Below, piece by piece: positions 1 to 39,057 of a stretch of 64,000 nucleotides of DNA (positions within the stretch are counted from its first letter, which is position 1; every line of letters begins with the position of its first letter). Below the pieces are notes generated by a model. It saw only the letters and a list, made by a program, of their open reading frames with translations, was not told where the DNA came from and did not search any database. Origin of the DNA: a virus. The position numbers and the translations under genes were made by a program. The stretch spans positions 1 through 64,000 of the IMG/VR virus record IMGVR_UViG_3300034107_000136; one strand, 5' to 3'.

Positions 1-151
1 GATCAAACGCACTGTTGTCACGCTTGAGCGAATGGCACAAGGTATCAAGCACCATGTTAAACATATCCATTGCTGCCTCGCCGTGATAGATGGCATAGTT
101 CCAGTCAATGGCTAGATCGGCTGCCAGAGTTACATAGTCTTTGCGGCTCAT
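1..151 (-). CDS. Small hypothetical protein, runs off the window (MSRKDYVTLAADLAIDW...KRDNSAFD)
   Basis: Manual translation; GAAAGG SD; array promoter at ~191. Confidence 0.8.
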   Translation of the reverse strand, partial: MSRKDYVTLAADLAIDWNYAIYHGEAAMDMFNMVLDTLCHSLKRDNSAFD

Positions 152-223
152 TTTGTGCCTTTCATTAGGTGATGACGTAAGTCTAACACGGGGGTGTGAC
201 ATTGGCCCGGGGCGGGGGGACGC

Positions 224-412
224 CTAAGCGTCCCACCCAAATAGATGACCTTCCATAGCGGCATCCTCAGCAAAGATATCGCCTTGGGGCCAAGGGTCTT
301 CCTGCTCATCAGCATCGGCCTCATCGGACCAAGTGTCCTCAGCGTGATCGCCATAGTCTGCCCACACGTCGGCATCGGCAACGGTTTCGGTATCCCACAG
401 GGTGCTGAACAT
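224..412 (-). CDS. 62-aa highly acidic protein (DNA-mimic candidate)
   Basis: 20 D/E, 0 K/R, 5 W; GAAAGG SD; promoter at ~451. Confidence 0.8.
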   Translation of the reverse strand: MFSTLWDTETVADADVWADYGDHAEDTWSDEADADEQEDPWPQGDIFAEDAAMEGHLFGWDA

Positions 413-562
413 GGTGTTCCTTTCATCGAAGTTAGCGTAAGCGTATCACGAGGGTCTGACATTGCGGCCCGGGCTGTTCGGTGTTCGGTATTGACCGAAC
501 AGCAGAACGGCAGTAAAATACTGGTCCATACATAAAGCGATAATACAAGAAAACACCCGGGC

Positions 563-751
563 CTAGTGCCTCCCGCAATGGGCATGGCCCTTTCGGCACT
601 CAAAGAAATCAGATGAGTAGTCTTCCTCATCAATGCTCTCAGGCATGGTGGCCTCAGCAGGGTAGAGATAGGAGCAACCCTTCTCAGCATAGTTCCAAGC
701 GGAACCGCAGACGCATCCAAACGATGCCTTGTCTAGGTGATGAGCGAACAT
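563..751 (-). CDS. 62-aa Cys/His-rich protein ending DFFECRKGHAHCGRH
   Basis: ATG 751 with CAACGAAAGG SD (the track start at 883 runs through the promoter); C-terminus paralogous to 3366-3476 and 3728-3838. Confidence 0.8.
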   Translation of the reverse strand: MFAHHLDKASFGCVCGSAWNYAEKGCSYLYPAEATMPESIDEEDYSSDFFECRKGHAHCGRH

Positions 752-815
752 TTTGTACCCTTTCGTTGAACGTAACGTAAGCCTATCACAGGGGTCTGAC
801 ATTGGCCCGGGTGGG

Positions 816-974
816 CTATGGTAGCCCCACCTCCTTGGCAAAGGCATACGCCTGCTTATAGGTGGCAAACATACGGATTTCACCCGTGTCCACGTTCATC
901 ACATCCCAAGGGGTTTCAAGCACGAAGCAGCCAAAAGAGACAGCAAGGCCATTGACAGGGACACCGTACCACAT
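816..974 (-). CDS. 52-aa hypothetical (MWYGVPVNG...MFATYKQAYAFAKEVGLP)
   Basis: Manual translation; GGAGG SD; stop next to CCCGGG 806. Confidence 0.7.
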   Translation of the reverse strand: MWYGVPVNGLAVSFGCFVLETPWDVMNVDTGEIRMFATYKQAYAFAKEVGLP

Positions 975-1048
975 AATTCCTCCAAAACTGGGATGCTTAT
1001 GTGGTCATCATAACACGGGGGTCTGACATTGCGGCCCGGGCGGTACTC

Positions 1049-1195
1049 CTAGCGGAGATACCAAGGGTCGTCTTCAGGGGTAGAGGTCACGCGGGTGAGG
1101 CGATTCTCATCAAGGGTATCAAAGTCAAGGTCGGCCATAGCCTGAACGATGGAGAGGAAGTGCTCGTCGTTTGCGTCTGCAAATGTTGTTGTCAT
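1049..1195 (-). CDS. 48-aa acidic leaderless protein (MTTTFADANDEHF...EDDPWYLR)
   Basis: ATG 6 nt after TATGAT; stop before CCCGGG 1035. Confidence 0.7.
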   Translation of the reverse strand: MTTTFADANDEHFLSIVQAMADLDFDTLDENRLTRVTSTPEDDPWYLR

Positions 1196-1277
1196 GGATT
1201 GATCATAGCATTGGGGTCTGACATTGTAAAGTCATAACGTAAGATGGACAGGAGCAAGGGTGCCCGGGGCGTGCTGG

Positions 1278-1460
1278 CTAGTGCCAGCCACAACCGCATA
1301 GGTCATAGTGCTCAGCATAGTGGGCGAGCGAACCCCAGTCAGGGGCAGAGAAGAAATCGGCAGGCGAGGTAGCGCACTGCATGGTAGGCTGGTCCTCGTC
1401 AATGATGGCGAGGTAGCCAAAGTGCTGCACCGTGGCTGCGTGCGCGAGAGTGAAGGTCAT
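1278..1460 (-). CDS. 60-aa hypothetical (MTFTLAHAA...DLCGCGWH)
   Basis: CAACGAAAGG SD; promoter at ~1498. Confidence 0.75.
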   Translation of the reverse strand: MTFTLAHAATVQHFGYLAIIDEDQPTMQCATSPADFFSAPDWGSLAHYAEHYDLCGCGWH

Positions 1461-1564
1461 GGGGGTTCCCTTTCGTTGGTTAGCCATAGCGTACCACGGG
1501 GGTCTGACATTGAGTGGTCTTAACGTAAGCACGCCTCAGAGCAAGCGCCCCGGGCCTAGCAAGT

Positions 1565-1690
1565 CTAAAGATCAGACTTGTCTAGGATCTCATAGTCCTC
1601 AGGGACAGCCTTGGAGTAGACGAACTCCAGAGCAGCGTCACGGCTGCTGAAGGACTTGACGAAGCGGGTCAAGTGGTAGACGCGGTACAT
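1565..1690 (-). CDS. 41-aa hypothetical (MYRVYHLTRFVKSFSSRDAALEFV...)
   Basis: GAAAGG SD; promoter at ~1734. Confidence 0.7.
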   Translation of the reverse strand: MYRVYHLTRFVKSFSSRDAALEFVYSKAVPEDYEILDKSDL

Positions 1691-1761
1691 GGGCGTTCCT
1701 TTCGTAGGTTTCTTATAGCGTAAGCGTACCATAGGGGTCTGACATTACCCGGGCCTTTCGG

Positions 1762-1902
1762 CTACTTGAAAATGGTCCCAGCGGTCAGCATCTCATAGCC
1801 GCAGGTTGAGCAGCGCAGCATGTAGCCCGTGATGAAATTCTCAAGGGTGTGGAAGCAAGAGTCGTTGCCAAGGGACAGGGGCGGGAGCGTCAATGTGATC
1901 AT
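1762..1902 (-). CDS. 46-aa leaderless zinc-ribbon-like peptide (CFH...CSTC)
   Basis: ATG 6 nt after TAGGCT. Confidence 0.7.
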   Translation of the reverse strand: MITLTLPPLSLGNDSCFHTLENFITGYMLRCSTCGYEMLTAGTIFK

Positions 1903-1948
1903 GGCGTAAGCCTATCATAAGGGTCTGACATTGGCTGGCCCGGGCCTC

Positions 1949-2101
1949 CTAGTAGAGGGTTTCAAAGATGCGATAGCCTGAACGATCAGGGAAGGAAATC
2001 TTGTTGGTAGCCAAGGCGTTTTCAGCCTCAGCCCTAGTCTTGAAGGTAGCGTAGTTGGTAGCGTTGGAACGGGGGGACAGGATTTCGTAGATGATGATCA
2101 T
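1949..2101 (-). CDS. 50-aa leaderless protein MIIIYEILSPRSNATNYATF...
   Basis: Paralog of 3019-3165; ATG 7 nt after TAAGGT. Confidence 0.8.
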   Translation of the reverse strand: MIIIYEILSPRSNATNYATFKTRAEAENALATNKISFPDRSGYRIFETLY

Positions 2102-2143
2102 AAGGTATACCTTAGCATAGGGGTCTGACACTGCCCGGGGCAC

Positions 2144-2206
2144 CTAGAACAGGTGAATGTTACTAAGTGCCACCACAACTATGATCACTAGGATAAGGAT
2201 ACGCAC
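2144..2206 (-). CDS. 20-aa hydrophobic peptide (VRILILVIIVVVALSNIHLF)
   Basis: GTG overlaps the upstream TAG; GAGGAGG SD; stop before CCCGGG 2134. Confidence 0.55.
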   Translation of the reverse strand: MRILILVIIVVVALSNIHLF

Positions 2207-2364
2207 TATACCTCCTCAAAATGATAGGTCAGCCAGTCGCGGTCACGGCAGTTCAACTTATTCAGGTGAAGGCCAGCGGCAATCTGAGCACCGCGAAGGG
2301 TGCGGTACTCACCAACGGTGATGACGGGGGCGTGGTGGATGCTGGTGTAAGTAACTTTGATCAT
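2206..2364 (-). CDS. 52-aa leaderless protein (MIKVTYTSIHH...WLTYHFEEV)
   Basis: ATG 6 nt after TAGTCT. Confidence 0.7.
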   Translation of the reverse strand: MIKVTYTSIHHAPVITVGEYRTLRGAQIAAGLHLNKLNCRDRDWLTYHFEEV

Positions 2365-2406
2365 AACGTAAGACTAGCATGGGGGTCTGACATTGACCCG
2401 GGCCTC

Positions 2407-2547
2407 CTACACCTCCATGCATTCGCAGAGGATGCAGATGCCAGTAGCCATCTCCCAGCCCTCTAGGCTATCTTTGCACACCGTGCAGCGTGCGTGGGTG
2501 GTGGGCACAAAATCAGTGTCCATCTCGAAGTCGATGTCAATGCTCAT
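2407..2547 (-). CDS. 46-aa CxxC-CxxC zinc-finger-like peptide (CTVC...CILC)
   Basis: CAACGAAAGG SD; promoter at ~2592. Confidence 0.75.
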   Translation of the reverse strand: MSIDIDFEMDTDFVPTTHARCTVCKDSLEGWEMATGICILCECMEV

Positions 2548-2617
2548 CGGGGCATCCTTTCGTTGGTGTCTTATAACGTAAGACTAGCAGAGGGGTCTGA
2601 CATTCCCGGGTTGCCTC

Positions 2618-2767
2618 CTACCACATCCACCCCGTGTACTTCTCCCAGTCAGCGAGGGTCATGACCCCCTTGTATTCACCGCAGAGGTAGCAGACCTTGC
2701 CGTCAGGCACCACCTCATCGCAGTAGCAGCAAACGAACTCTGGCATCTCAATCTCGGTGATCATCAT
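2618..2767 (-). CDS. 49-aa leaderless CxxC-CxxC peptide (MMITEIEMPEFVCCYC...CYLC...)
   Basis: ATG 6 nt after TACGAT. Confidence 0.75.
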   Translation of the reverse strand: MMITEIEMPEFVCCYCDEVVPDGKVCYLCGEYKGVMTLADWEKYTGWMW

Positions 2768-2773
2768 ACGATG

Positions 2774-2797
2774 ATCGTAGCACAGGGGTCTGACATT
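2774..2797 (-). promoter_or_regulatory. Representative array promoter AATGTCAGACCCCTGTGC-TACGAT (extended -10), leaderless ATG 6 nt downstream
   Basis: Same geometry across the units. -10 variants include TAGACT, TACGAT, TATGAT, TAAGAT, TAGAAT, each preceded by TGn. Confidence 0.8.
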
Positions 2798-2806
2798 GCC
2801 CGGGGC

Positions 2807-2974
2807 CTAGCGCACCTCCCAATCAGAGAGGGGGGCGAGGCGCTCATTGGAATTGAGGTAGAGGTCCATCAACTCCAACTCCATAGGGGTGAGGTAGGGC
2901 ACTGAGAATGAGGGGGGTGCATCCCACGCGGCAGGCATAGCAGGGGCAAGGGCTGGGGTTTCGGTGATCATCAT
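2807..2974 (-). CDS. 55-aa leaderless Pro-rich protein (MMITETPALAP...DWEVR)
   Basis: ATG 6 nt after TACGAT; TAG 2 nt from CCCGGG 2799. Confidence 0.7.
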   Translation of the reverse strand: MMITETPALAPAMPAAWDAPPSFSVPYLTPMELELMDLYLNSNERLAPLSDWEVR

Positions 2975-3018
2975 AGATTGATCGTAGCATAGGGGTCTGA
3001 CAGCCGACCCGGGCCTTT

Positions 3019-3165
3019 CTAGTAGAGGAATTGGAAGATGCGGTAGCCCTGCATCTCTGGGAAGCGGGTAGGGTCAGCCAGAGCAGCCTTGGCCTCAGCC
3101 AGAGTTCTGAAGGTGGCATAGTTGGTAGCCTTGGGACGGGGGGACAGAATCTCGTAGATGATCAT
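3019..3165 (-). CDS. 48-aa leaderless protein MIIYEILSPRPKATNYATF...
   Basis: Paralog of 1949-2101. Confidence 0.8.
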   Translation of the reverse strand: MIIYEILSPRPKATNYATFRTLAEAKAALADPTRFPEMQGYRIFQFLY

Positions 3166-3203
3166 AAGATCATCGTAGCAGAGGGGTCTGACATCGCCCG
3201 GGG

Positions 3204-3323
3204 CTACTCAACGCACCCCCCGCAGTAGTCCCAGAAGCATAGGATGCGGTACTGCTCGCAGATGTAGCAGACACCCATGAGGGGCATAGGGCCAATGACT
3301 GGACGTTCTTTGGAGATGATCAT
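3204..3323 (-). CDS. 39-aa leaderless CxxC-CxxC peptide (CYIC...CGGC)
   Basis: ATG 6 nt after TACGAT. Confidence 0.7.
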   Translation of the reverse strand: MIISKERPVIGPMPLMGVCYICEQYRILCFWDYCGGCVE

Positions 3324-3365
3324 ACGAGCATCGTAGCATGGGGGTGTGACACTGGCCCGGGCCTC

Positions 3366-3476
3366 CTAGTGCCTCGCGCAGAATGCGTGGCCCTTGCGGC
3401 ACTCAAAAAAGTCAGGCGAGTAGTACTCGTCATCAAGGGTAGTAGGGACATGGGCTACGTTCTCATTGATCATCAT
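3366..3476 (-). CDS. 36-aa leaderless peptide ...YYSPDFFECRKGHAFCARH
   Basis: Paralog of 3728-3838 and of the 563-751 C-terminus. Confidence 0.8.
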   Translation of the reverse strand: MMINENVAHVPTTLDDEYYSPDFFECRKGHAFCARH

Positions 3477-3517
3477 AAGAGTATCTTAGCATGGGGGTCT
3501 GACATTGCCCGGGGTGC

Positions 3518-3658
3518 TCAGGTACACATGACGCAGTAGTCGTCACGGTAGGAGCCTACTACCTCAAAGTCACATCCGCAACCTGTGGAGCAATCCGCTG
3601 CGTAGGTGTAGACGGTGTTGAAGGAATGGTCCCAGATGCCGATCTCGGTGATTGTCAT
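3518..3658 (-). CDS. 46-aa leaderless Cys-rich peptide (CSTGCGC...CVMC)
   Basis: ATG 6 nt after TACGCT. Confidence 0.7.
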   Translation of the reverse strand: MTITEIGIWDHSFNTVYTYAADCSTGCGCDFEVVGSYRDDYCVMCT

Positions 3659-3702
3659 AGCGTAAGCGTAGCAGGGGGGTCTGACAATCGACCCGGGCGC
3701 CC

Positions 3703-3729
3703 AAAAGGTGTTGGTACGCAACAACTTTT
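3703..3729. terminator. Inverted repeat AAAAGGTGTTG-gtacg-CAACAACTTTT
   Basis: Overlaps the stop of 3728-3838; near copy at 4074-4100. Confidence 0.5.
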
Positions 3730-3838
3730 AGTGCCTAGCGCAAAAGGCATGACCTTTGCGGCACTCGAAGAAATCAGGAGAGTAGTACTCGTCCTCATCA
3801 AGGGTAGTAGGGGCAACGACTGCGTTTTCTTTGATCAT
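3728..3838 (-). CDS. 36-aa leaderless peptide ...YYSPDFFECRKGHAFCARH
   Basis: Last 21 aa identical to 3366-3476 with synonymous codon differences. Confidence 0.8.
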   Translation of the reverse strand: MIKENAVVAPTTLDEDEYYSPDFFECRKGHAFCARH

Positions 3839-3949
3839 GGATTCATTCTAGCAGGGGGGTCTGACATTTGGGGGGGCATACAGACCTTCTTATGTAACGG
3901 TTGGGTAACGGTTGCCCGGGGCCTGAGGGTGGTCGCCCACCCCTAGGGG

Positions 3950-4030
3950 TTACTCGCTCCACATGCACGCGAGGGCAAAGACGCCGAGGGTGAAGGAAGC
4001 GAGGGCAAGTACCGCAACTGTGATCATCAT
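3950..4030 (-). CDS. 26-aa leaderless single-TM peptide (MMITVAVLALASFTLGVFALACMWSE)
   Basis: ATG 6 nt after TACGAT. Confidence 0.65.
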   Translation of the reverse strand: MMITVAVLALASFTLGVFALACMWSE

Positions 4031-4073
4031 AGATTGATCGTAGCAGAGGGGGCTGACAGTCGGCCCGGGGCCG

Positions 4074-4100
4074 AAAAGTTGTTGGTATGCAACAACTTTT
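4074..4100. terminator. Perfect 11-bp inverted repeat AAAAGTTGTTG-gtatg-CAACAACTTTT
   Basis: Lies downstream (minus strand) of the putative ncRNA. Confidence 0.55.
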
Positions 4101-4312
4101 TGTGTGGCCTGATCTCTAATCAGGTCTAGGTTTATTTGCTCTTGCGAGGCTCACCCTAGAGGTGGTCGATAAGTAGATAGAGAACAGTAACTGGCTGCCA
4201 GAGTTGGTCCTCATCATGAGCCTGACTTTTTGGGAATTGCAAAGGGTGGGGCTGGGGTTGCCAGACGTGTCCTTTGCTCCTGTGGTTCGGTTACTGCTCT
4301 CTATTTACTTAT
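4100..4312 (-). ncRNA. Putative structured non-coding RNA
   Basis: Promoter TTGCAT-17-CATAAT with the TGTCAGAC box in its spacer; 23-bp inverted repeat 4290-4312 / 4169-4191; internal stems; no SD-led or leaderless ORF. Confidence 0.6.
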
Positions 4313-4427
4313 AGAACTATTATGACATAGGCGTCTGACAGATGCAAGTTTTGGAGGGTTTTTCGGGATGATTAGAATCACATCGTAGGTACTTGACAAA
4401 TGGCTGCTGGAGGCCCGGGGCACCTCC

Positions 4428-4496
4428 CTAGAAGAGATGAACTTGCGTGGCAATAAGAAAAACCGTTGCTACGCAAAGGGTTATCGCTGCCCACAT
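4428..4496 (-). CDS. 22-aa hydrophobic peptide (MWAAITLCVATVFLIATQVHLF)
   Basis: GGAGG SD; second cistron after 4499-4693; ends HLF like 2144-2206. Confidence 0.55.
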   Translation of the reverse strand: MWAAITLCVATVFLIATQVHLF

Positions 4497-4498
4497 GC

Positions 4499-4693
4499 TC
4501 AACCTCCGAGGGTAGAGAGGTGAGCAACAATAGCACGACCATTGTCAGTACGTCGCTTGAATCCTGTAGACCCTTGCTCACCATACTGAATGTCATAGTA
4601 CTTATCTGCAAGCATGGCTACCCCGAAGGTAGAGAGCCAAGACAGTGCAAAGACAATAAGGGCAAAGAGCGAAACACCTGTATAGACGTTCAT
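4499..4693 (-). CDS. 64-aa protein with N-terminal TM helix
   Basis: CAACGAAAGG SD; promoter at ~4733. Confidence 0.75.
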   Translation of the reverse strand: MNVYTGVSLFALIVFALSWLSTFGVAMLADKYYDIQYGEQGSTGFKRRTDNGRAIVAHLSTLGG

Positions 4694-4747
4694 GATGTGC
4701 CTTTCGTTGTTGTTATGGTGCTAGCCTAGCAGGGGGGTGTGACACTC

Positions 4748-4897
4748 CTAGTGGAGGGGCCATTCCTCAATCATGAAACCCTCACTGCTATAGATTTCCT
4801 CTGAGGCTATAGCCTGCTCCATCCATGCTTGGGCTACCTCGCGTGATGCGAACATACGGATGGGGCCATCCCACATTTCAGATACTGAGTAGATCAT
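4748..4897 (-). CDS. 49-aa hypothetical (MIYSVSEMWDGPIRMFASREVAQAW...)
   Basis: CAACGAAAGG SD; promoter at ~4943. Confidence 0.75.
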   Translation of the reverse strand: MIYSVSEMWDGPIRMFASREVAQAWMEQAIASEEIYSSEGFMIEEWPLH

Positions 4898-4958
4898 TGT
4901 CTTGCCTTTCGTTGATTGCTTATTAGTTAGAGTCTAGCAGTAGGGTGTGACAGTGAGG

Positions 4959-5087
4959 CTAGCGGGTAGCCTGTGAGCACCAAGCGCACACACCATGTGC
5001 GTCAGTACGATGCCAGCCGCTAGGGGCTACCGTGCAAGCGACACCCTTCGGTGCGGTGCGGGCCTCAAGTGCGAACGATGAAATCAT
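4959..5087 (-). CDS. 42-aa Cys/His peptide (C..H..H..CAWC)
   Basis: CAACGAAAGG SD; promoter at ~5140. Confidence 0.7.
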   Translation of the reverse strand: MISSFALEARTAPKGVACTVAPSGWHRTDAHGVCAWCSQATR

Positions 5088-5338
5088 TTTCTTGCCTTTC
5101 GTTGTGTTTCCGTTTTTCCTTATGACGAAAGTCTAGCACGGGGGTCTGACACTTTTGACCATTTCAGGGCTTATTTTGAAATTCTTTTTTGTGGGCTACA
5201 TCACATGTGTGCGGTCTATTTTGGGCTTGACATTGCTTCAAAAGTGCGTATCGTACACCTCTAACATAAATTGTACTTTTAAAATATTTAAAGTTTAAAA
5301 TTTAATAAATCAAAATATATATATGGTATAATTTTAAA

Positions 5339-5887
5339 ATGAAGCAATGTACAAAATGTAATGAAATGAAGCAAATAGATCAATTTGCAAAAAATAAAAG
5401 TAATAAGTCAGGTATCCACTCTTGGTGCAAATTATGCATGACAGAAAAAGTATTGGGGTATCGCGGAGGCAGGGTATTCAAGAAATTGACAGAAACAGAA
5501 TCACATAAACAATGTAGGTTATGTGAAAAAATGAAACTATATTCAGAGTTTGCAACCAAGGATAGTCGTACAACAAAAACTGAGACATATTGCAAGCAAT
5601 GTAAAAAGTTTATGGGTACAGAAAAGGTGTTATCAAAATATGGGTTGAATGTTATCTCGTACATGGAAATGTTTAATGCTCAAGATGGCGTATGCGTAAT
5701 ATGCAAAAAACCTGAAAACAATGGAAAAAGACTGTCTGTCGATCATGATCATTTATGTTGTTCGGGAGCATACAGTTGTGGCAAATGCATTAGAGGACTA
5801 CTTTGTAGCAGATGCAATAAAACTCTTGGCATGGTACAAGACAACCCTGATTATCTTAATGCAATGATTGAGTATCTATCTAAATAA
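5339..5887 (+). CDS. Endonuclease VII-family nuclease with N-terminal Cys-rich repeats
   Basis: QDGVCVIC...LSVDHDH...IRGLLCSRCNKTLG motif. Confidence 0.85.
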   Translation: MKQCTKCNEMKQIDQFAKNKSNKSGIHSWCKLCMTEKVLGYRGGRVFKKLTETESHKQCRLCEKMKLYSEFATKDSRTTKTETYCKQCKKFMGTEKVLSKYGLNVISYMEMFNAQDGVCVICKKPENNGKRLSVDHDHLCCSGAYSCGKCIRGLLCSRCNKTLGMVQDNPDYLNAMIEYLSK

Positions 5888-6809: not shown

Positions 6810-7142
6810 ATGGCTGCCACTTATAAGAATACAAGAATCCAAGGCACAGCATCCACATCTACATACTCTACTCTATATACAGTTCCTGCTGCAAGTTCAG
6901 CCGTAATCTCAACAATAAGCGTTGCAAACACATTGTCTACAGAAGCAACCTATCGTATAGCCATTGTTAATTCTGACGTTACTCCTACCGCGACCGACTG
7001 GCTAGTCTACGACTCAACCGTAGCAGGAAATGATTCAACGTTTATTAGCGTGGGAATTACATTGACTGCCAACCAAATACTTAAAATTTCTTCATCTGCC
7101 AACACCGTTACATTCATGTGCTTTATTTCGGAGATTTTATAA
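6810..7142 (+). CDS. ~110-aa TLYTVP-family structural protein
   Basis: Paralog of 15930, 17527, 24100, 15354. Confidence 0.75.
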   Translation: MAATYKNTRIQGTASTSTYSTLYTVPAASSAVISTISVANTLSTEATYRIAIVNSDVTPTATDWLVYDSTVAGNDSTFISVGITLTANQILKISSSANTVTFMCFISEIL

Positions 7143-30627: not shown

Positions 30628-33600
30628 ATGGCAATCGCATCTAATCTTTATGCATCAAAGGTATTCTCTGAACATCCGATTGCCTCATGGTCTTTAGATG
30701 ACGACATATCATACATATCATTAATAACTGAAAGCGAAAGAGACTTAGCAAATTGGACAGAACTTGTAAATGCTACTGAATCAGAAGTCATTGGGATGCA
30801 GGGCAGTCCATTTGAGAATAGTATTCTTACTGAAATCACTGCAATCAACCCTACATTAGTTGTAGAAGCATTCAGTCAAGATCTTTTTAATCTTCAAGAT
30901 TTAAATCAAGCAATGAATACTTTTGCAATAAATTTATTCCTGTACACAGACGGATCTGTCTTGTATTATGAATATGGATACCGATATATAGACCCAGACT
31001 CAGCAGAATATATTGAGAATGTACAAAGAGTGGAAGATTCAAGGTTCTCAACTTGGATTAGGGTTGGATCTACCTTTAATCCCCCAAATCTCAACACTCA
31101 AGCACAAGTAGTATTTCGTGCAGCATTTTCCTCTGGATCTTCAGCATCAATAATCTTAAATGGTCTAACTGTTGGTCAGTGGGCAGAGCCAACAAGCAAC
31201 GTATCTTTGGGTGTTATCCCACAACTAGTAGATGCTGATCTTCAATCTATTCTTGGACCAGTATACGGAGTTACAACACAAGCATATGGGTTATCGTCCA
31301 ATGACGGATACATTTTGGCTGAAGATGGAAAACTTTTAGCAATAAATCGCGGAATACCGATGGTATATGGATCGGACAACGTTACACGACTAAGTTCATC
31401 AGAAACTTTACCATCAGTTGTCATTCCTGGAATGGGTATGCTTAATGAATCTGGAAAGTATAACTCCTACACGATGGAAATGTGGCTTAAGATAGAAAAT
31501 AATCACGCAACATCTAGAAGAATTTGGGGTCCACTGTCTAGTAACGACGGGTTACACATAAAAAGAGGTTATTTATCTTTAGTAATAGGCAATTCTATTG
31601 GATCATACTTTGTATCAGAGTGGTACAGGCCAATGATCGTTCATATTGTTGTAAGAGAGAACTCGGCATCGTTATTGATTAATGGAGAAGAGGTAATATC
31701 AATTGCATTTGACACATCAAGTCTAATTTTGCCAGATATTACAGAAGATTGGATAGGATTTTACTGCCATCATGAAATGCCTATATTTGAATTAGATTGC
31801 ATCTCAATACTTCCATATGTTATCCCCGCCCAAGTTGCAAAAAGAAGATTTGTTTGGGGGCAAGGAGTAGAAAGTCCAGAAACTATTAACTCTGCTTATG
31901 AAGGTACGGTTGCATACATAGATTATCCATATTCAGAGTACACCGCTAATCAAACATACCCAGATTTTGCTAGATGGGATGCTGCGTACTCAGAAAACCT
32001 TGCAACAACAAGAAGATCAGTCGCCATACCAGATTACAGATTGCCAGATATATTTATTGGAGAAAAAACAGTTCAAGATTTATATGATGACAACTATTTA
32101 ATACAAGAAGTCGGTCATTCAAGATTTATGTCGTTTAGACCAAATGATACTTGGACAGATCCATGCTATTACTATTTTAATTCATTAAATATACTGACAG
32201 ATGTTGTCCGTGCGGCTTGGGGGGTATTTGAAGTAGAGACGCCCACAGCAGCGTCAGAACCACTCATGCACTTCTATAACTCTATCACTGGAGATTCATT
32301 CAACATTGATATAGATGGGTTAGAAATTACATACAATCTGTATAGAAATAACTCAATCACCCCACAAAACTTTAAAACAGAAACTATCACTTTAAATTCT
32401 CATTTTGTTGTAGGCGTTGATCTTCCAAGGCTATTTTCTTCCTTTGGAAGCCAAGTTGGAGAATTCTTTGGCAATCCGTCTGCAATTCAGATAAAAATTG
32501 GTGGAGATGGATCAACAACATTTTCTGGATGGATTTACCGTGTAGGATTTTCAAATCAAACAAATCTTGAAAAAATTCAAAATCATTTTGATAGCAATGG
32601 CATTGCAATTCCACTAGACATAGAACTACTAGATGATCATCTTGCATCCTACACACTGTTGCCCACAGAAGACTTTAATCTGTACTACCTTGATGTTGGC
32701 GTATCGTCATATTGGGAAGAATACTACCCGCTTTCATTTTTTGCAGGATCTCTCAAGGATTCATACGGCAATCAATTCTATGATCTAGACTTCATCCAAT
32801 ATAATATTGGATATCCAACTACTACGGTGCTAGTGGAGGATACTGTAACAGGCAGTTGGTCATATGAAGAACTATCTGAAGCGTATTCAATCCCAATAAT
32901 AAAGCCTTATGATGTGTTAGACAATGCATTGATATCTGGTTACAATGACTACGATGAATTAAAGAATAAAACGGTAACCGTAGAAAGTTATGATTTCTCT
33001 GAATCATCACTAAGGTCATACATAACCTTTCAAAAAATATCTGACGGATCAAATCGACCAATATCTGATTATCCACAAACGCAATCTATTCCAGCAACAA
33101 ATGTACTAGATGTTCCATCATTTATAAATCAATTTAGTACAAAGTTTGAAATAAAAGATCAATCAGTAATATATCCACCAAAAACTTTCGGCATAGAAGA
33201 TACAGCCATCGTAATACATTTAGAGGCAAACATATATGGGGTCAAGACAAATCCATTGAACATAAGGAAGATGTCTCTGTCATCAAAATCTTTAGATCCT
33301 TCAACGTTTAATCAAATAGGAACAAGATTTGGAAATAAACTGTATCCGTACTCAAAGACTGGTATCTACTATGACAATTCAAAACAAAATCCATACTCAA
33401 TATATAAAGACTCATCACCGTACTTATATCTAACAAAATACTCAGGAATAGAGTCATTAGGAGAAAGAGAGTTCCAAGTAGAACGAGGAATATCCATGCC
33501 AATAAACTCTGAGAAAAAAAACGGGGATAAGATCAGTGCGATCCAGTTATGGATAAAATACAATGGCGATACATTTACTCAATCACCAACCACCTTGTTT

Positions 33601-34248
33601 TCATTAGACTCAGCAAGCCTAGACTTAGGCTTTAACGTAATATCAGATCAAAGTGCAACAAGAGGTAGATTGTTTTCAACAAATCTTATTACTGGTCAAG
33701 AGTATGTGGATCTAACATTCTATCAAGATGGAATAGAAGTAATAACACCATACTTAGAAAAAAATAAATGGACTGTTATTGGCGTTAACTTTGGAACCCC
33801 TATTGGATTCTCAAATTACACGGGATCAATAAACCTATTCCAATCAGCAACATTTAATGATATTGCTTATTACAAAGCAACATCACTACAAGAGGCTCAA
33901 TCTATTATTTATAGAAGATGGGATAACGTTAATGGGACTCCGCTTACTCCACTTGATTGGCAATATTGGATAGGAAATACAGATCCTTATGGAAAGTGGG
34001 ACAACGTTCTTAAACTTGCAGAAAAGAATATTTACGGGGTAAGTCCAGAAACATTGTATAAATCCTATACTGGAACAAACAGGCAGATCGTAGATGATGG
34101 AGAATTGCTAGTAATATCAGAAAGCGGTGTAACAATTCTTTCAAGTAGCATGACCGATGAGACTTATAGTTCAACATACCCAACAAAAACTAGGGTGGTC
34201 GTGGGAAATAGTCCAGAATGGTCATCATATAACAAGAAACCAGTCTAG
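30628..34248 (+). CDS. Large virion structural protein with LamG/concanavalin-like region
   Basis: YTMEMWLKI...MIVHIVV...LLINGEEV pattern; 1206 aa. Confidence 0.6.
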   Translation: MAIASNLYASKVFSEHPIASWSLDDDISYISLITESERDLANWTELVNATESEVIGMQGSPFENSILTEITAINPTLVVEAFSQDLFNLQDLNQAMNTFAINLFLYTDGSVLYYEYGYRYIDPDSAEYIENVQRVEDSRFSTWIRVGSTFNPPNLNTQAQVVFRAAFSSGSSASIILNGLTVGQWAEPTSNVSLGVIPQLVDADLQSILGPVYGVTTQAYGLSSNDGYILAEDGKLLAINRGIPMVYGSDNVTRLSSSETLPSVVIPGMGMLNESGKYNSYTMEMWLKIENNHATSRRIWGPLSSNDGLHIKRGYLSLVIGNSIGSYFVSEWYRPMIVHIVVRENSASLLINGEEVISIAFDTSSLILPDITEDWIGFYCHHEMPIFELDCISILPYVIPAQVAKRRFVWGQGVESPETINSAYEGTVAYIDYPYSEYTANQTYPDFARWDAAYSENLATTRRSVAIPDYRLPDIFIGEKTVQDLYDDNYLIQEVGHSRFMSFRPNDTWTDPCYYYFNSLNILTDVVRAAWGVFEVETPTAASEPLMHFYNSITGDSFNIDIDGLEITYNLYRNNSITPQNFKTETITLNSHFVVGVDLPRLFSSFGSQVGEFFGNPSAIQIKIGGDGSTTFSGWIYRVGFSNQTNLEKIQNHFDSNGIAIPLDIELLDDHLASYTLLPTEDFNLYYLDVGVSSYWEEYYPLSFFAGSLKDSYGNQFYDLDFIQYNIGYPTTTVLVEDTVTGSWSYEELSEAYSIPIIKPYDVLDNALISGYNDYDELKNKTVTVESYDFSESSLRSYITFQKISDGSNRPISDYPQTQSIPATNVLDVPSFINQFSTKFEIKDQSVIYPPKTFGIEDTAIVIHLEANIYGVKTNPLNIRKMSLSSKSLDPSTFNQIGTRFGNKLYPYSKTGIYYDNSKQNPYSIYKDSSPYLYLTKYSGIESLGEREFQVERGISMPINSEKKNGDKISAIQLWIKYNGDTFTQSPTTLFSLDSASLDLGFNVISDQSATRGRLFSTNLITGQEYVDLTFYQDGIEVITPYLEKNKWTVIGVNFGTPIGFSNYTGSINLFQSATFNDIAYYKATSLQEAQSIIYRRWDNVNGTPLTPLDWQYWIGNTDPYGKWDNVLKLAEKNIYGVSPETLYKSYTGTNRQIVDDGELLVISESGVTILSSSMTDETYSSTYPTKTRVVVGNSPEWSSYNKKPV

Positions 34249-34266
34249 TCTGGTACAATTGTGGTT

Positions 34267-34659
34267 ATGAGTAATACAAAAATCCCCAAAATTGGTAAAA
34301 GTAAGATAACCCATATAGATAAAGGCTCTGGTCAGCGTAACATGTTTGGTTACGAGTGGGGTCTTTATTTCTGGAGGCTTCCAAGTGGAAGACTTTTTAA
34401 GGATGATGGAGGAAGGCTTCTTAATGTTCCTTCAGTTAAAGGAGACATTGGACAAATGTCAAAAATACGTCAAGCGGCAGCATCATACGGTCAACCAGAT
34501 GGTGAAGCATGGTTCTATGCTGGTGCGAACAGAGCCACAGATGAAGAATATGGAGAGCAACTTGATCGTCTTAATCAAGGGTTGATCCCATCAATGAATG
34601 ATCTTGGTGCAGTCCATGCTGCAAAGAAAACTGCTGCCATATACGGAGATGCCGAATAA
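34267..34659 (+). CDS. Hypothetical protein preceding the portal
   Basis: ATG 7 nt after TGGTACAAT; coupled to the portal. Confidence 0.65.
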   Translation: MSNTKIPKIGKSKITHIDKGSGQRNMFGYEWGLYFWRLPSGRLFKDDGGRLLNVPSVKGDIGQMSKIRQAAASYGQPDGEAWFYAGANRATDEEYGEQLDRLNQGLIPSMNDLGAVHAAKKTAAIYGDAE

Positions 34660-36290
34660 TGTCTGAACTCCTTATTGATGCAAAGTTAGCAGACGCTATC
34701 ATTGAGAATGAATTCTTAAATTCAGACCCATTCAATAAGAGTTGGGAATCCCTTATCGGATTTAACGGAATAGATAAAAATTTTAAGCGTAGAGTTGCTC
34801 GTACTGAAAAAGCAAACACAACAATTAACAACATTCCTCGTCAAGCAGACGGTCAAATCTCTGAAAGATACTTATCTGAAGCAAATGCAATTGGTCAGTC
34901 AGAAAGTGGAGATGCAAACTCAAAGAAAATTAATCCTGGGCAGGTATATAGAAATGGATATGGAATCTTTGATTTAATTACCCCTCCATACAATCTATAC
35001 GAACTCTCATCTTATTACGACACTTCATTTGCTAACCATGCGGCAATAGATACAAAAGTATCAAATACAGTCGGTCTTGGTTATAAGTTTGACATAACAA
35101 CAGAAACATTGCTTAGACTAGAAGCCACATCAAGTGAATCTGCAAAAAAGAAAGCCAAAAAGCGTATTGAACAATTGAAGATTGAATTGGCTGACTGGGT
35201 TGAAAGTTGTAATGATGATGATAGTTTAACAAAAACTCTTGAAAAAACAGTTACAGACATGCAAGCAACTGGAAACGGTTATATTGAAATTGGTAGAACG
35301 GTAACTGGTGATATTGGGTACATTGGTCACATTCCCTCAACCACAATGCGTGTTCGTCGTCTTCATGATGGGTATATTCAAATTATTGCAGGAACGATTA
35401 CATACTTTAGGAATTTTGGTGCTACCAATCCAAATCCAGTTACAACTGATAACAGACCTAACGAGGTTATTCACCTTAAAGAATACTCTCCACTCAATAC
35501 GTTCTACGGTGTTCCAGATATCGTTGCCGCAATGACATCTCTTCGTGGGGATCAAATGGCTGCTCAGTATAATATTGATTATTTTGAGAACAAGGCTGTT
35601 CCACGATACATTATTACCGTTAAGGGTGCCAAATTGACTGCGGAAGCAGAAGATAAGTTATTCCGCTTCTTCCAAACTGGACTGAAGGGTCAATCCCACA
35701 GAACACTGTATATTCCGCTTCCTGGAGATAGCGAGGGAAGTAAAATAGAGTTTGAAATGCATCCTGTAGAGAATGGTGTACAAGAGGCATCATTTAGCGA
35801 CTATCGCTTGAGAAATCGTGACGACATCCTTATGGCGCATCAAGTACCGCTATCTAAATTGGGCGGTACTGGTTCAGGTGGAACTGCTGCGGCAATGAGC
35901 CAAGACAGAACATTCAGAGATCAAGTTGCAAAACCATTACAAGAGTATGTTGAGAAGGCTGTAAACAAGATCATTAAAGAGAAGACAGACATTATCAAAC
36001 TTTGCTTTAATCAACTCAGTCTTATTGATGAAATTGCAGATTCTCAGATTAATGAAAGATATGTAAAGAATCAAGTTCTCACTCCAAACGAAGTTCGTGA
36101 AAAGATTGGATATCCACAAAGAGATGGTGGAGATGTTCCTCTTGAATTAAACCCAAGACAAGCAGCAGATGCTAAAGGAAATATGACGGGGAACAAGACA
36201 AGAGACACAGAAAGATCAAACAATCAGTCTGATGGTGCTGGAGCGGTAACAGGAAGAAACCCTAAAGGTGAAGGAGCAAAGACATCATAA
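34659..36290 (+). CDS. Portal protein
   Basis: TGNGYIEI, EVIHLK, YGVPD, YFENKAVP, LTPNEVRE..G motifs. Confidence 0.9.
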   Translation: MSELLIDAKLADAIIENEFLNSDPFNKSWESLIGFNGIDKNFKRRVARTEKANTTINNIPRQADGQISERYLSEANAIGQSESGDANSKKINPGQVYRNGYGIFDLITPPYNLYELSSYYDTSFANHAAIDTKVSNTVGLGYKFDITTETLLRLEATSSESAKKKAKKRIEQLKIELADWVESCNDDDSLTKTLEKTVTDMQATGNGYIEIGRTVTGDIGYIGHIPSTTMRVRRLHDGYIQIIAGTITYFRNFGATNPNPVTTDNRPNEVIHLKEYSPLNTFYGVPDIVAAMTSLRGDQMAAQYNIDYFENKAVPRYIITVKGAKLTAEAEDKLFRFFQTGLKGQSHRTLYIPLPGDSEGSKIEFEMHPVENGVQEASFSDYRLRNRDDILMAHQVPLSKLGGTGSGGTAAAMSQDRTFRDQVAKPLQEYVEKAVNKIIKEKTDIIKLCFNQLSLIDEIADSQINERYVKNQVLTPNEVREKIGYPQRDGGDVPLELNPRQAADAKGNMTGNKTRDTERSNNQSDGAGAVTGRNPKGEGAKTS

Positions 36291-36328
36291 CGAAATCGTT
36301 ATAAAATGATGTTATAATTACAATAGTC

Positions 36329-37882
36329 ATGATTAAATTCCAAGAAACTAAAACAGCAATCAGTGGCAACCACCTTAACTTTTCTACTCCTATTTCTAAG
36401 ATAGATGTAGAAAAAAGAATGGTACATGGTTTTGCAACACTGGACAATCTTGATAGGCAAGGTGACGTTGTTCCACTTGAAGCATCAATAAAAGCCTTTG
36501 AGTCTTTTAGAGGAAACATAAGGGAGATGCATCAGCCAATTTCTGTCGGCAAGGTGGTTTCCTTTAAAGAAGAAACATATTTTGATGCAGAAAGCAATAA
36601 ATCCTACAATGGAATCTATGTATCCGCTTATGTAAGCAAGGGTGCTCAAGACACATGGGAAAAAGTACTTGATGGAACGCTTAGTGCATTTTCAATAGGT
36701 GGAGAAGTTCATGACTCAGAAGATGTTTATGATGAAGAGTTGAATAAAAAATATCAAGTAATTAAAGAGTATTCCCTTAGCGAACTTTCTTTAGTTGACA
36801 ATCCAGCAAACCAATTTGCTAACGTTATTAGTATTGAAAAAGGCCAAGGAACAGGATATTTGATGAAGGCAACAATTGAAAATGTATTTTGGTGCAGAAA
36901 AGATGATGTAATTCAAATGTCATATGGAGCAAATAAGGCTTGTCCTCAATGCGATAAGGCCATGTCAAACATTGGCTTCGTAGAAAGCAATGATCCAGAA
37001 AAAACATCAGTAATAAAAGGAATAATTACTAATACAAAGAAAACCATAATTCAAAAGAATATTGACATTGATTCATACGTTAAGTTTGATGATAGTTATG
37101 GAAGAGTAATTGACTTAGTATTTAAGGGTGGAGCAAGACTTTCGTCTGAAGAAGTTGCTGTTATGGCAAAAACAGACGATCCAGTTGTGATAATAAAATT
37201 ATACTCACAAAAGGACGGTATAATTATACCAACAAATCGTCGCGTTATTAAGAATATTTCATTAGTAGAAACAGTTAATGCGATTAGTAAATCAGAGGTA
37301 AAGGAGGTAAGCAAGATGAATTCAGATATTATCGTTGTAGATGAGATCGAAAAGTCAATGAGTGAAGAGCAAATCAATCCACCAATGGAGGACGCAATTC
37401 CTGTCACTATGGTTGACACGCAAAAGGCTATTGAGATCGAAGTCACAGAAGAAGACGAAGAAGACTCAGAAGATGAAATGGCAGAAAAAGCCTATTCAGG
37501 AGCCGAAGAAGAAAAGGGCGACATGAGTGATGAGGCAAAGAAAGCCATTTCACCATCAGTAGTCAGTGAAGAAGATGTTAATGCTACAACCAAAATGATT
37601 GAAACCATTAACGATCATCTCGCATCTGCACTTTCTAGTCTTGCTGAAACAGTAAAGGCTCTTGATGCTAAGATTGAAGGCATTAATAAGGCAATTGCTG
37701 GAGTCAGCAATGAAGTAAGTGAAGTAAAAGATAGTTTTGGAAAGCGCGTGGACGCTGTGGAAAAGGACACTGCTTTCCGTAAGTCTGCTGATCTTGGCGA
37801 GATCTTGCAGGAACAACCAATAGTGGTTAAAAAATCACTGTGGGGCGGCAGTTTCCTCAAAAATGCCGATCTATTTAAATAA
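36329..37882 (+). CDS. Prohead protease / scaffold fusion
   Basis: VHGFAT..D..GD, IREMH, FSIGG, ELSLVDNPAN; acidic coiled-coil C-terminus. Confidence 0.85.
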   Translation: MIKFQETKTAISGNHLNFSTPISKIDVEKRMVHGFATLDNLDRQGDVVPLEASIKAFESFRGNIREMHQPISVGKVVSFKEETYFDAESNKSYNGIYVSAYVSKGAQDTWEKVLDGTLSAFSIGGEVHDSEDVYDEELNKKYQVIKEYSLSELSLVDNPANQFANVISIEKGQGTGYLMKATIENVFWCRKDDVIQMSYGANKACPQCDKAMSNIGFVESNDPEKTSVIKGIITNTKKTIIQKNIDIDSYVKFDDSYGRVIDLVFKGGARLSSEEVAVMAKTDDPVVIIKLYSQKDGIIIPTNRRVIKNISLVETVNAISKSEVKEVSKMNSDIIVVDEIEKSMSEEQINPPMEDAIPVTMVDTQKAIEIEVTEEDEEDSEDEMAEKAYSGAEEEKGDMSDEAKKAISPSVVSEEDVNATTKMIETINDHLASALSSLAETVKALDAKIEGINKAIAGVSNEVSEVKDSFGKRVDAVEKDTAFRKSADLGEILQEQPIVVKKSLWGGSFLKNADLFK

Positions 37883-37912
37883 AACAGGAAGAAATTCAGG
37901 AGGTGAAACACA

Positions 37913-39037
37913 ATGACACAAGAAATTATTAAGAACCAGCCAAGTGATACAGGAGAATACGGTGATCCAAACCCAGGTCTATACCAAGGTCAAGGAGCAT
38001 TCGCCGCAGGAGGTATTGGTACTGTGGAAGACCCAAGTGCTGGTGTATTGGGAAACATCCCAAACTCCAACTATGGTGACACAACAGGCCCAAACGCAGT
38101 TAATCCAGTAGGAGCACCTGGTGGTCTTTTAAACCCAGAACAAGCACGTCGATTCATCGACTATGTTTGGGATGCAACAGTTCTCGCCCAAGACGGTCGT
38201 AGAGTTACAATGCGTGCAAACACGATTGAACTTGAAAAGGTCAACGTAGGTGAGCGTGTTATCCGTTCAGCAGCACAGGCACTTGGTGAATACACCAATG
38301 CTGGAGCAACATTCACAAAGGTTGAACTTACTACAAAGAAGATTCGTCTTGACTGGGAGGTTTCAACTGAGGCACTTGAAGATAACATCGAAGGTGCAGC
38401 ACTTGAAGACCATCTAGTTCGTTTGATGACAAACTCATTCGGTAACGACCTTGAGGATCTTGCCATCAACGGTACTGGAGGGATGGACCCATTCCTTGGT
38501 ATCATGAACGGTTTCGTAAATCAGGCAACTGATGGAGATTCACACGAAGCAGTCGTTGATACAACAGGAGGATGGACACCTGAGGTAATGCAGGAGATCA
38601 TTTATGCTCTCCCACGCAAGTACCGTGCTATCAAGTCAGGACTCAAGTTCTACGCAGGTACAGATGTCTTTGCAAACATTGTAAAGAACAACGGTACACT
38701 TGCAGATGCTATCTCTGAAGCACTTATGCCAAGAGTTAGCGGAACACCAGGACGTCGTGAAGACTACCTTTCAGGTGGTGGACAGACATTTGGTGGCGCT
38801 CGTACCACTCGTGTTCTTGGCATGAATGTTCAGGAAGTTCCTTACTACCCTGCTGGTTATGTCGATTTGACATTCCCACAGAACCGTGTATGGGGTTTCC
38901 AGAGAGACATCACTGTTAACCGTGAGTACAAGCCAAAGAAGGACACAATTGAATATACAATTTTCGTCCGTTTTGGCCTAACATGGGAAGAACTAGACGC
39001 AATTGCATACGCAGAAGCAACACCAGTTGTTTCCTAG
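37913..39037 (+). CDS. Major capsid protein (HK97 fold)
   Basis: GGLLNPEQ..RFI, EALEDNIEG, DLEDLAING; position; strong codon bias. Confidence 0.9.
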   Translation: MTQEIIKNQPSDTGEYGDPNPGLYQGQGAFAAGGIGTVEDPSAGVLGNIPNSNYGDTTGPNAVNPVGAPGGLLNPEQARRFIDYVWDATVLAQDGRRVTMRANTIELEKVNVGERVIRSAAQALGEYTNAGATFTKVELTTKKIRLDWEVSTEALEDNIEGAALEDHLVRLMTNSFGNDLEDLAINGTGGMDPFLGIMNGFVNQATDGDSHEAVVDTTGGWTPEVMQEIIYALPRKYRAIKSGLKFYAGTDVFANIVKNNGTLADAISEALMPRVSGTPGRREDYLSGGGQTFGGARTTRVLGMNVQEVPYYPAGYVDLTFPQNRVWGFQRDITVNREYKPKKDTIEYTIFVRFGLTWEELDAIAYAEATPVVS

Positions 39038-39057
39038 TATCAAATATGCTATGCTTT

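Follow-up and report, generated by a model that had tools for sequence, protein, structure and literature searches.

The viral contig IMGVR_UViG_3300034107_000136 (G000) begins with a dense array of micro-genes, and the units of this array are separated by the palindromic hexamer CCCGGG. The contig is 101,709 bp long and is estimated to be a 94%-complete genome. The first 64 kb of the contig, a stretch of 64,000 nucleotides, are referred to as the window. The contig end (position 1) falls inside the array. CCCGGG is the boundary of a mobile unit and brackets every kind of module in the array. The coordinates of the array, the hexamers, and the associated features are shown in Table 1.

The junctions between the micro-genes share one layout. 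A typical junction on the minus strand consists of the stop codon, a tail of 1-10 nt or a hairpin of 29-30 nt, CCCGGG, a spacer of 2-8 nt, and the promoter. The promoter begins with the box TGTCAGACCCC that is followed by NN, TGN, and TANNNT. The gene starts with an ATG 6-7 nt past the -10 element (leaderless, 12 units) or is preceded by a leader with ACGAAAGG. The distance from the stop codon to the next CCCGGG was obtained for 17 predicted cassette open reading frames (ORFs), and it is 1-10 nt in 14 of them, 29-30 nt after a hairpin in two, and 66 nt in one. The TGTCAG box lies 2-8 nt from the hexamer in 16 units and 39, 39, and 48 nt from it in three. The hexamers at 4414 and 556 have no box within 70 nt, and the five distant sites overall span 39-94 nt. 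The initial annotation gave the distances as 0-6, 37, 37, and 46 nt; these are the same distances with the box defined 2 nt further upstream. Its description of a hexamer that varies in distance from the box, stays close to the upstream stop codon, and is missing from the three units nearest position 5160 is borne out. A clear hairpin is present at about seven of the 21 junctions (about a third) and ends 0-5 nt before the hexamer. The hexamer always marks the outer, upstream edge of any regulatory material that follows it. The stop codon is TAG in 14 of the 17 ORFs (563-3950, minus strand), and the stops often read TAGGAGG, which places a Shine-Dalgarno-like GGAGG directly before the hexamer. 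Six homologues matched one micro-gene of the array.

An exact search identified 21 copies of CCCGGG in the window, all within 206-4419, and no copy in 4420-64000. This agrees with the initial annotation, which reported 21 copies in 4.2 kb and none in the other 59 kb. All 21 copies are intergenic as had been claimed, and they lie between predicted minus-strand micro-genes. The dinucleotide-preserving shuffles of the window (100 shuffles) contain 3.0 copies on average and seven at most. The expectation for the array (1-5160, GC 0.53-0.56) is 1.6 copies under an order-1 Markov model and 5.0 under an order-3 model, and no other hexamer is as frequent there as CCCGGG. The comparison with a Markov expectation that had been proposed as a check thus gives 21 against 1.6-5.0, and the hexamer is not equally frequent elsewhere. 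The whole contig has 23 copies, of which the extra two (100951 and 101015) adjoin the array across the contig end. These two copies belong to a 64-bp AT-rich module that is tandemly duplicated at 100951-101020 (L286:4951-5020), outside the window, with CCCGGG at the head of each copy. The duplication lies upstream of a 179-aa gene on the minus strand.

One relative of the contig (G001) was identified. It is 48,143 bp long, is about 90% identical where it can be aligned, and is the sole fetched contig that shares the CCCGGG punctuation. G001 has 29 CCCGGG sites that are all located in 12.7 kb, and none is present in the other 35 kb, including a stretch with a GC content of 0.52. The roughly 50 known sites of the window and G001 are all perfect CCCGGG. 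The bias in the flanks is limited to two bases on each side (G and G/C before, C and A/C after), which gives a weak dyad extension to 8-10 bp, GS-CCCGGG-CM, across 48 distinct contexts.

The words that resemble the hexamer are depleted. All 21 CCGG of the window array sit inside CCCGGG hexamers. When the hexamers are masked, CCGG is absent from the window array (7.6-23 expected) and occurs once in the G001 array (19-50 expected). The look-alikes that match five of the six letters (CCCGGH and DCCGGG) occur once in both arrays combined against 19.3 expected. Outside the arrays they reach about half of their expectation (16 against 28.7 and 7 against 15 in the two genomes). DCCGGH occurs four times in 5161-100900 of the genome against about 55 expected, thus the depletion of CCGG depends on context. 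The other GC-only hexamer palindromes have zero or one copy each in the whole genome. AGCT, an AluI-type site, does not occur at all in the 101.7-kb genome, where about 280-340 copies are expected, or in the 48-kb relative. The general statement of the initial annotation that phages avoid such palindromes therefore applies to this genome. The depletion of palindromes, AGCT, and CCGG indicates that the phage is under strong restriction-type selection, to which the junction hexamers are a deliberate exception.

The promoters of the array were compared with a known actinobacterial class. The PafBC-dependent (RecA-NDp) promoters of the actinobacterial DNA-damage response have the consensus tGTCgg(N10)tA(N3)T, where the upstream half is located at -28 to -23 (the '-26 element'), and PafBC inserts between sigma domain 4 and the DNA at promoters that have no -35 element (PMC8635444). 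The pattern TGTCRG-N10-TANNNT has 18 exact matches in the window against 1.15 expected, and all of them are located in the array on the minus strand. The sequence upstream of the array promoters is variable. The same motif was also found in actinobacterial genomes including Candidatus Planktophila; the genome scan gave mostly single matches in high-GC genomes and was used for recognition of the promoter type only. The array boxes match PafBC (RecA-NDp)-type promoters, and activation by PafBC is predicted from the motif. An actinobacterial-type promoter is consistent with the lake-water origin and the leaderless starts. A scan with the box alone, in which the hexamer was left out, identified more than 120 IMG/VR contigs where the same promoter class heads early genes.

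The hexamer is an element separate from the promoter, as the initial annotation had proposed. Among the fetched loci of other phage contigs, 211 of the 231 promoters of this class lack CCCGGG in the 60 nt upstream of them, and AAA or ATT stands before most of these 211; no palindromic mark was found upstream of the promoters in other phages of the class. Three units of the array itself have a promoter and no hexamer. In the close-spaced units, the hexamer occupies positions of about -32 to -40 as counted from the inferred start. The distance between hexamer and box varies by 6 nt within this close group and reaches up to 94 nt overall, and there is no fixed spacing of 16-18 bp from the -10 element. 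Given this position and a PafBC-type promoter, the hexamer is not a -35 element of the usual kind. The possibility that it acts as a -35 element is thus answered indirectly, by a promoter type that makes no -35 contact (PMC8635444).

The arrays of G000 and G001 were cut at every CCCGGG, and the resulting segments were compared. Of the window segments, 15 align over their full length with a G001 segment (coverage of 0.97-1.0 in most, identity of 0.86-1.0). Six segments of the window and two of G001 have no partner over the compared stretch, and one segment is relocated. At both ends of W3/R1 (unit 3698-3914), an identity of 95-100% breaks off precisely at the edge of the hexamer. It also ends at the hexamer downstream of W7/R4, W11/R8, and W12/R3 (units ending at 3014, 2140, and 1945) and upstream of W13/R9 (unit starting at 1938). 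One clean indel can be read letter by letter. The window has tail-CCCGGG-CAG-box and, one unit on, tail-CCCGGG-CCAGCCAA-box, and G001 has the first tail, a single CCCGGG, and then CCAGCCAA-box. G001 keeps the CCAGCCAA spacer, therefore the exchange falls in CCCGGG(C), short of the 10 bp of box identity a few bases further on. Ten fully orthologous junctions show no loss of the hexamer against about 2.6 expected; the flanks are only about 5% diverged, and the expectation is an estimate.

In G001, the hexamer is found after stop codons, hairpins, and a tRNA gene, and four kinds of modules come after it: the box directly, the type A module with two CGTTAY repeats, the type B module that ends in CTTACGTTAAGAC, and a TTGTCA-type promoter-like stretch. 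Several phage lineages carry the type A module (CGTTAYC-N5-GTTAY-TTAAG) upstream of PafBC-type promoters; its two direct repeats are spaced by one helical turn, which gives it the look of an operator. About 8.3 kb of the G001 array (31143-39463, L107:4991-13311) has no counterpart in G000 and is still punctuated by CCCGGG. This part carries larger genes (DUF932, DUF7178, and HNH) and three tRNA genes (Asp, Asn, and Lys). Its lack of a counterpart indicates that the contig G000 is broken inside the array. Near and distant searches of the array against the phage GenBank collection gave no match. The scans of viral contigs with the hexamer-box pattern and with a micro-gene protein returned G001 only. 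The scan of metagenome contigs with CCCGGG-N0-10-TGTCAGACCC returned single chance matches, and no further relative was among the matches listed.

At least 24 metagenome runs from lake water contain the array stretch. Logan contigs from four of these runs were aligned to positions 1-5400, and the joints at which nucleotides are skipped were recorded from these assembled contigs (22 further joints are present beyond those listed). Each joint is denoted by the two positions that flank the skipped nucleotides. Four joints are hexamer-to-hexamer deletions. These are 3195>3507 (311 nt skipped, with the eight shared letters GCCCGGGG), 3507>3692 (184 nt skipped, with six shared letters), 804>1035 (230 nt skipped), and 3920>4424 (503 nt skipped, found in all four runs). 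The joint 3513>3729 was also found and has one end at the hexamer 3508-3513. Two joints meet a hexamer on one side only, which are 513>556 (at 556) and the replaced cassette 2798>2981 (at 2798). The joints listed have 30 ends, of which 11-13 fall no more than 2 nt from the edge of a hexamer; position alone predicts about 1.2. Logan contigs are assembled with 31-letter words. The six to eight shared letters are far below this length, therefore the joints were carried by real reads and are not graph artefacts. Whether indels between relatives end at CCCGGG had been proposed as a test, and such ends were found both against G001 and in the four metagenome runs.

The position of the crossover can be read from the spacers. 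The spacer of the downstream promoter is kept in all four clearly readable deletions, which are the G001 indel, 3195>3507, 3507>3692, and 3920>4424. The fifth deletion, 804>1035, points the same way, with a spacer that is identical to neither parent. If the crossover had been in the box, or if the whole repeated junction had annealed, about half of the products should carry the other spacer. The retained downstream spacer places the exchange within the hexamer and its 6-8 bp, despite the 10-14 bp of box identity that lie 2-8 nt away. The gain, loss, relocation, and duplication of cassettes in relatives and in natural populations begin and end in the hexamer.

Table 1. Positions of the array, its CCCGGG hexamers, and associated features. 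Positions refer to the window unless a locus label is given.
Feature	Position	Strand	Remark
Micro-gene array, about 23 units of 26-92 aa, own promoter each	1-5160	minus	GC 0.50-0.56 against about 0.40 in the rest of the genome
Three promoter-gene units without hexamer (boxes 5151, 4952, 4744)	4686-5160	minus	
18 exact PafBC-type promoters TGTCRG-N10-TANNNT, plus about five with C at position 6	440-5151	minus	
CCCGGG after stop of last hexamer-less unit; then TTGTCA-type promoter-like stretch and structured-RNA unit	4414-4419		End of 3920>4424 deletion
CCCGGG after hairpin; spacer CCGAC, then promoter of 26-aa gene	4064-4069		
CCCGGG after hairpin; then 48-nt type A module and box	3915-3920		G001 homology starts here; end of 3920>4424 deletion
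Type A module (two CGTTAC repeats, then TAAG) between hexamer and box	3867-3914	minus	Also in G001 and other phage lineages
CCCGGG after hairpin; spacer TCGAT, promoter	3692-3697		G001 homology ends here; end of 3507>3692 deletion
CCCGGG 4 nt past TGA; spacer CAA, promoter	3508-3513		End of deletions 3195>3507, 3507>3692, 3513>3729
CCCGGG 4 nt past TAG, within 10-bp palindrome GGCCCGGGCC; spacer CCAG	3356-3361		
CCCGGG 1 nt past TAG; spacer CGA	3197-3202		End of 3195>3507 deletion, 8 shared letters
CCCGGG 5 nt past TAG; spacer TCGGC	3008-3013		100% G001 identity over 45 nt up to hexamer, spacer then differs
CCCGGG 2 nt past TAG; spacer CAA	2799-2804		Edge of replaced cassette 2798>2981
CCCGGG 7 nt past TAG; spacer AA	2605-2610		
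CCCGGG 4 nt past TAG; spacer TCAA	2397-2402		
CCCGGG; spacer CAG	2134-2139		Upstream edge of unit absent here in G001
CCCGGG 4 nt past TAG; spacer CCAGCCAA	1939-1944		Downstream edge of G001-absent unit; spacer kept with downstream unit
CCCGGG overlapping GCC-GAAA-GGC mini-hairpin; spacer TAA	1748-1753		
CCCGGG 10 nt past TAG; then 39-nt type B module (ending ..CTTACGTTAAGAC..) and box	1549-1554		
CCCGGG after hairpin; then 39-nt type B module and box	1263-1268		
CCCGGG 8 nt past TAG; spacer CCGCAA	1035-1040		End of 804>1035 deletion
CCCGGG abutting hairpin; spacer CCAA	806-811		End of 804>1035 deletion
CCCGGG 1 nt past TAG; upstream flank of promoterless 82-nt module	556-561		End of joint 513>556
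Promoterless, AT-richer 82-nt module with hairpin, CCCGGG on both sides	474-555	minus	Conserved in G001
CCCGGG, downstream flank of 82-nt module; spacer CCGCAA, promoter	468-473		
CCCGGG 5 nt past hairpin; spacer CCAA, promoter of unit cut by contig end	206-211		
Endonuclease VII-family ORF, 182 aa, zinc-ribbon N-terminus	5339-5887	plus	In insertion of about 630 bp, GC 0.37
Type A module copies	L107:1349-1396, 1572-1619, 5349-5396, 6953-7000		
Contigs with the octamer CCGCGCCC	L004:3052-10044, L294, L290, L310, L332, L337, L312, L341, L291, L323, L320		

The type A module led to an AT-rich sister lineage (GC 0.35-0.39) that has the same promoter class. In this lineage the invariant asymmetric octamer CCGCGCCC opens each intergenic regulatory region, with up to seven co-oriented copies in 14 kb. 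The octamer follows stop codons, small hairpins, and tRNAs. The palindrome TCGAAC-N4-GTTCGA, which we take to be LexA-box-like, often stands before it, and exact DnaA boxes lie between it and a PafBC-type promoter. The segments of about 1 kb that are delimited by the octamer are mosaic among the eleven contigs, and the breaks in homology do not always fall at the octamer. The two lineages therefore share a design in which each regulatory module carries an invariant GC mark at its upstream edge, written in lineage-specific words. The asymmetry of the sister mark weakens a pure restriction-site reading of CCCGGG and keeps a bound-factor reading alive.

The findings in this work are best explained by CCCGGG as the joint, or crossover core, of small mobile cassettes, and this explanation as a whole is given an even chance of being right. 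CCCGGG is a real, lineage-specific cassette joint that represents a variant of the modular shuffling known from the promoter-early stem-loops (PeSLs) of T4-type phages. A cassette would consist of the spacer, the PafBC-type promoter, the micro-gene, the stop codon, and an optional hairpin, with one hexamer on each side. The hexamer would serve as the preferred crossover core, where a factor that recognises the dyad-symmetric site may direct either break and rejoin or a template switch. Whole cassettes would be swapped in this way with their genes and promoters undamaged, and look-alike sites inside genes would be selected against. A site-directed process of this kind is favoured because the exchanges prefer 6-8 bp over a nearby longer repeat and because the look-alikes are purged. 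Candidates for this factor are a nuclease with XmaI/SmaI-like specificity, encoded by the host or the phage, and a bound protein that induces breaks. The narrower proposal is that the phage lineage runs a cassette-exchange system of its own, built on a palindromic core of 6 bp, where a putative phage or host nuclease or recombinase cuts and rejoins CCCGGG; it is put forward only tentatively.

Several points weigh against the cassette joint as formulated here. Three junctions with changed neighbours (W7, W9, and W12) have differing spacers, and some exchanges may lie in the spacer or the box. The four readable deletions (probably five) give a weak sign test (p of about 0.03-0.06), and the roughly nine independent events come from one relative genome and four contig sets. 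Units without a hexamer also rearrange (joints 4484>4698 and 4744>5192). The asymmetric octamer of the sister lineage fits a bound factor or a transcription-related mark at least as well. A simple cut-and-ligate process at a palindrome would not guarantee the single orientation of all cassettes, and evolvability alone is a weak force for retaining about 50 perfect sites. The 94%-complete phage genome, which has its assembly gap in the array, shows no C5 or N4/N6 methyltransferase (PF00145 and PF01555 gave no match), no tyrosine or serine recombinase (Phage_integrase or Resolvase), and no match to ParB (ParB_N). The XcyI-type nuclease family PF09571 gave no match in the phage either, in a weak search where the control matched nowhere.

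The Pfam scans of 40 larger proteins, including those of the extra G001 array part, returned no site-specific candidate that would read the hexamer. They identified replication and recombination genes, glycosyltransferases, DUF932, DUF7178, and HNH genes. The genome encodes RecA, a PD-(D/E)XK nuclease, DNA polymerase III alpha, a primase, a helicase, an HNH-AP2 nuclease, and, adjoining the array, an endonuclease VII-family gene. The endonuclease VII-family gene was considered as the reader of the hexamer and rejected; its AT-rich insertion is absent at that place in G001, which has a 39%-identical homologue elsewhere. This ORF is probably a free-standing mobile nuclease gene.

The alternative that survives best is that the hexamer is the docking site of a dimeric, sequence-specific DNA-binding protein from host or phage that would mark where each regulatory region begins upstream, such as an insulator, a roadblock, or a co-regulator of the PafBC-type promoters, and that recombination ends there only since the hexamer is the outer edge of a repeated junction. 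We regard this as possible although unlikely. The weak dyad extension and the perfect state of all of the about 50 sites fit such a protein. The sister mark CCGCGCCC stands at the same position beside LexA-box-like and DnaA-box sequences, therefore these phages do place sites for host factors in their intergenic modules. The stoperators of Cluster A phages are a known parallel to such sites, and the 17-bp palindrome of Cluster O mycobacteriophages is another (PMC4351075). However, a site of six fully specified base pairs is very short for a specific regulator, the distance to the promoter ranges over 2-94 nt, and a promoterless module is bracketed as well. The phage genome offered no candidate protein for this role, and docking of a ParB/KorB-type protein was rejected since ParB_N had no match. 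An effect of the homology edge also predicts equally frequent crossovers at the other edge of the repeat, after the -10 element, and none is present among the readable deletions.

The hexamers could also be functionless, passive scars of cutting by a host Type II enzyme of XmaI/SmaI specificity followed by ligation in the cell, which we consider improbable. The deletions are indeed precise from site to site and restore the site, and the phage avoids other palindromes strongly in the manner expected under restriction. Chang and Cohen are also said to have reported in 1977 that restriction plus ligation recombines DNA in vivo. However, a phage that purges AGCT completely and CCGG at all other places would soon lose useless sites, and none of the about 50 has decayed. 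No remnants with one mismatch were seen at the junctions, the cassettes are all co-oriented, and the mark of the sister lineage is not palindromic.

An RNA or terminator element is slightly less probable still. The GGG half of the hexamer would pair with CCCC of the box or extend the upstream hairpins and would thereby stop or process read-through transcripts. Such pairing with the box is present in the minimum-free-energy folds of roughly a third of the 21 junctions, a similar share has the hairpin directly upstream, and the PeSL stem-loops of T4-type phages are rich in G-tracts and C-tracts. However, the pairing has 3-4 bp with loops of 8-12 nt and is inconsistent; folding of all 21 junctions gave no consistent structure that involves the hexamer. 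The pairing is impossible where the gap between hexamer and box is 39-94 nt, no U-tract follows, and an RNA signal need not be palindromic. Finally, a role as a promoter part (a -35-like or UP-like element) is highly improbable, since the suggestive position at about -32 to -40 in 16 units is set against the variable spacing, the 211 of 231 promoters of the class that lack the hexamer, and a promoter type without a -35 element (PMC8635444).

The initial annotation had offered a crossover core, a protein-binding site, or a decoy for a restriction-modification system of SmaI/XmaI type as the role of the hexamer. Its interpretation holds in part. The separate element and the indels that end at CCCGGG stand, and the decoy is not supported. 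No matching methyltransferase or XcyI-type nuclease was found in the phage, a decoy that is cut would still destroy the genome, and the sister mark is asymmetric. CCCGGG is the same word as the target of SmaI and of XmaI/Cfr9I/XcyI, and the site-to-site deletions look like those from cutting and religation. It differs from such a target in that no cognate enzyme was found in the phage, the sites are retained instead of avoided, and the mark of the sister lineage is not symmetric.

The cassette joint was also compared with known modular systems. PeSLs are mobile regulatory cassettes of T4-type phages, and the indels found in hyperplastic regions are delimited by these elements (Arbiol et al. 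2010, PMC2839356; Comeau et al. 2014, PMC4122927). A PeSL is a composite of about 100 bp that consists of a sigma-70 promoter and a terminator stem-loop, and its exchange is ascribed to homologous recombination over that length (PMC2839356; PMC4122927). Both systems have dense, small, orphan early genes with strong early promoters of their own, and there are about 23 promoters in 5.2 kb with genes of 26-92 aa in the present array. In both, the indels and replacements between close relatives are bounded by a repeated intergenic element, and the regulatory signals travel with the gene. However, the array belongs to a siphovirus-like actinophage with PafBC-type promoters instead of sigma-70 -35/-10 promoters, and a hairpin is present at about seven of 21 junctions where the PeSL has a constant stem-loop. 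The exchanges in the array also map to a separate palindrome of 6-8 bp and not to the longer promoter repeat.

The array resembles an integron in its tandem, co-oriented small cassettes, in the recombination site at their boundaries, and in their variable presence, absence, and order. The attC sites of integrons are imperfect palindromes of about 60-140 bp that are recombined as folded single strands. In contrast, conservation in the array is limited to the hexamer and one or two bases beside it. Integron cassettes are mostly promoterless, whereas the cassettes described here each carry a promoter, and no integrase was found in this 94%-complete genome with its assembly gap in the array.

The Cluster O mycobacteriophages have a 17-bp palindromic repeat, TGTTCGGNNNCCGAACA, in more than 30 copies (PMC4351075). 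It is likewise an invariant dyad-symmetric repeat of an actinobacteriophage with many copies in the short gaps of a long operon of small genes. It differs from CCCGGG in its length of 17 bp and in its distribution, which is genome-wide, partly within genes, and not one-to-one with the junctions. The hairpin of the promoterless module (482-501) reads TGTTCGG-N6-CCGAACA, and its 7-bp arms match the Cluster O repeat, which may be a coincidence.

The early arrays hold the fastest-evolving host-takeover and counter-defence functions of phages, and their reshuffling is known in outline only for T4-type phages. The exchange points in the present array can be read at single-base resolution, and they lie in a hexamer that resembles a restriction site rather than in the longer promoter repeat. 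Such placement suggests a site-directed process in phages of the abundant freshwater Actinobacteria, which could involve a new nuclease or a recombination hot spot. It also provides a rule by which cassettes can be delimited in metagenomes, which is to cut at CCCGGG. If the narrower proposal of a cassette-exchange system is correct, self-expressing early micro-genes would be shuffled among co-infecting relatives in an integron-like manner without an integrase, while the core is kept from the rest of the genome, and the shuffled micro-genes would probably serve host takeover or anti-defence. The promoter motif further suggests that early phage expression may be wired to the host sensing of single-stranded DNA via PafBC, and many freshwater actinophages may use this host activator for early transcription.

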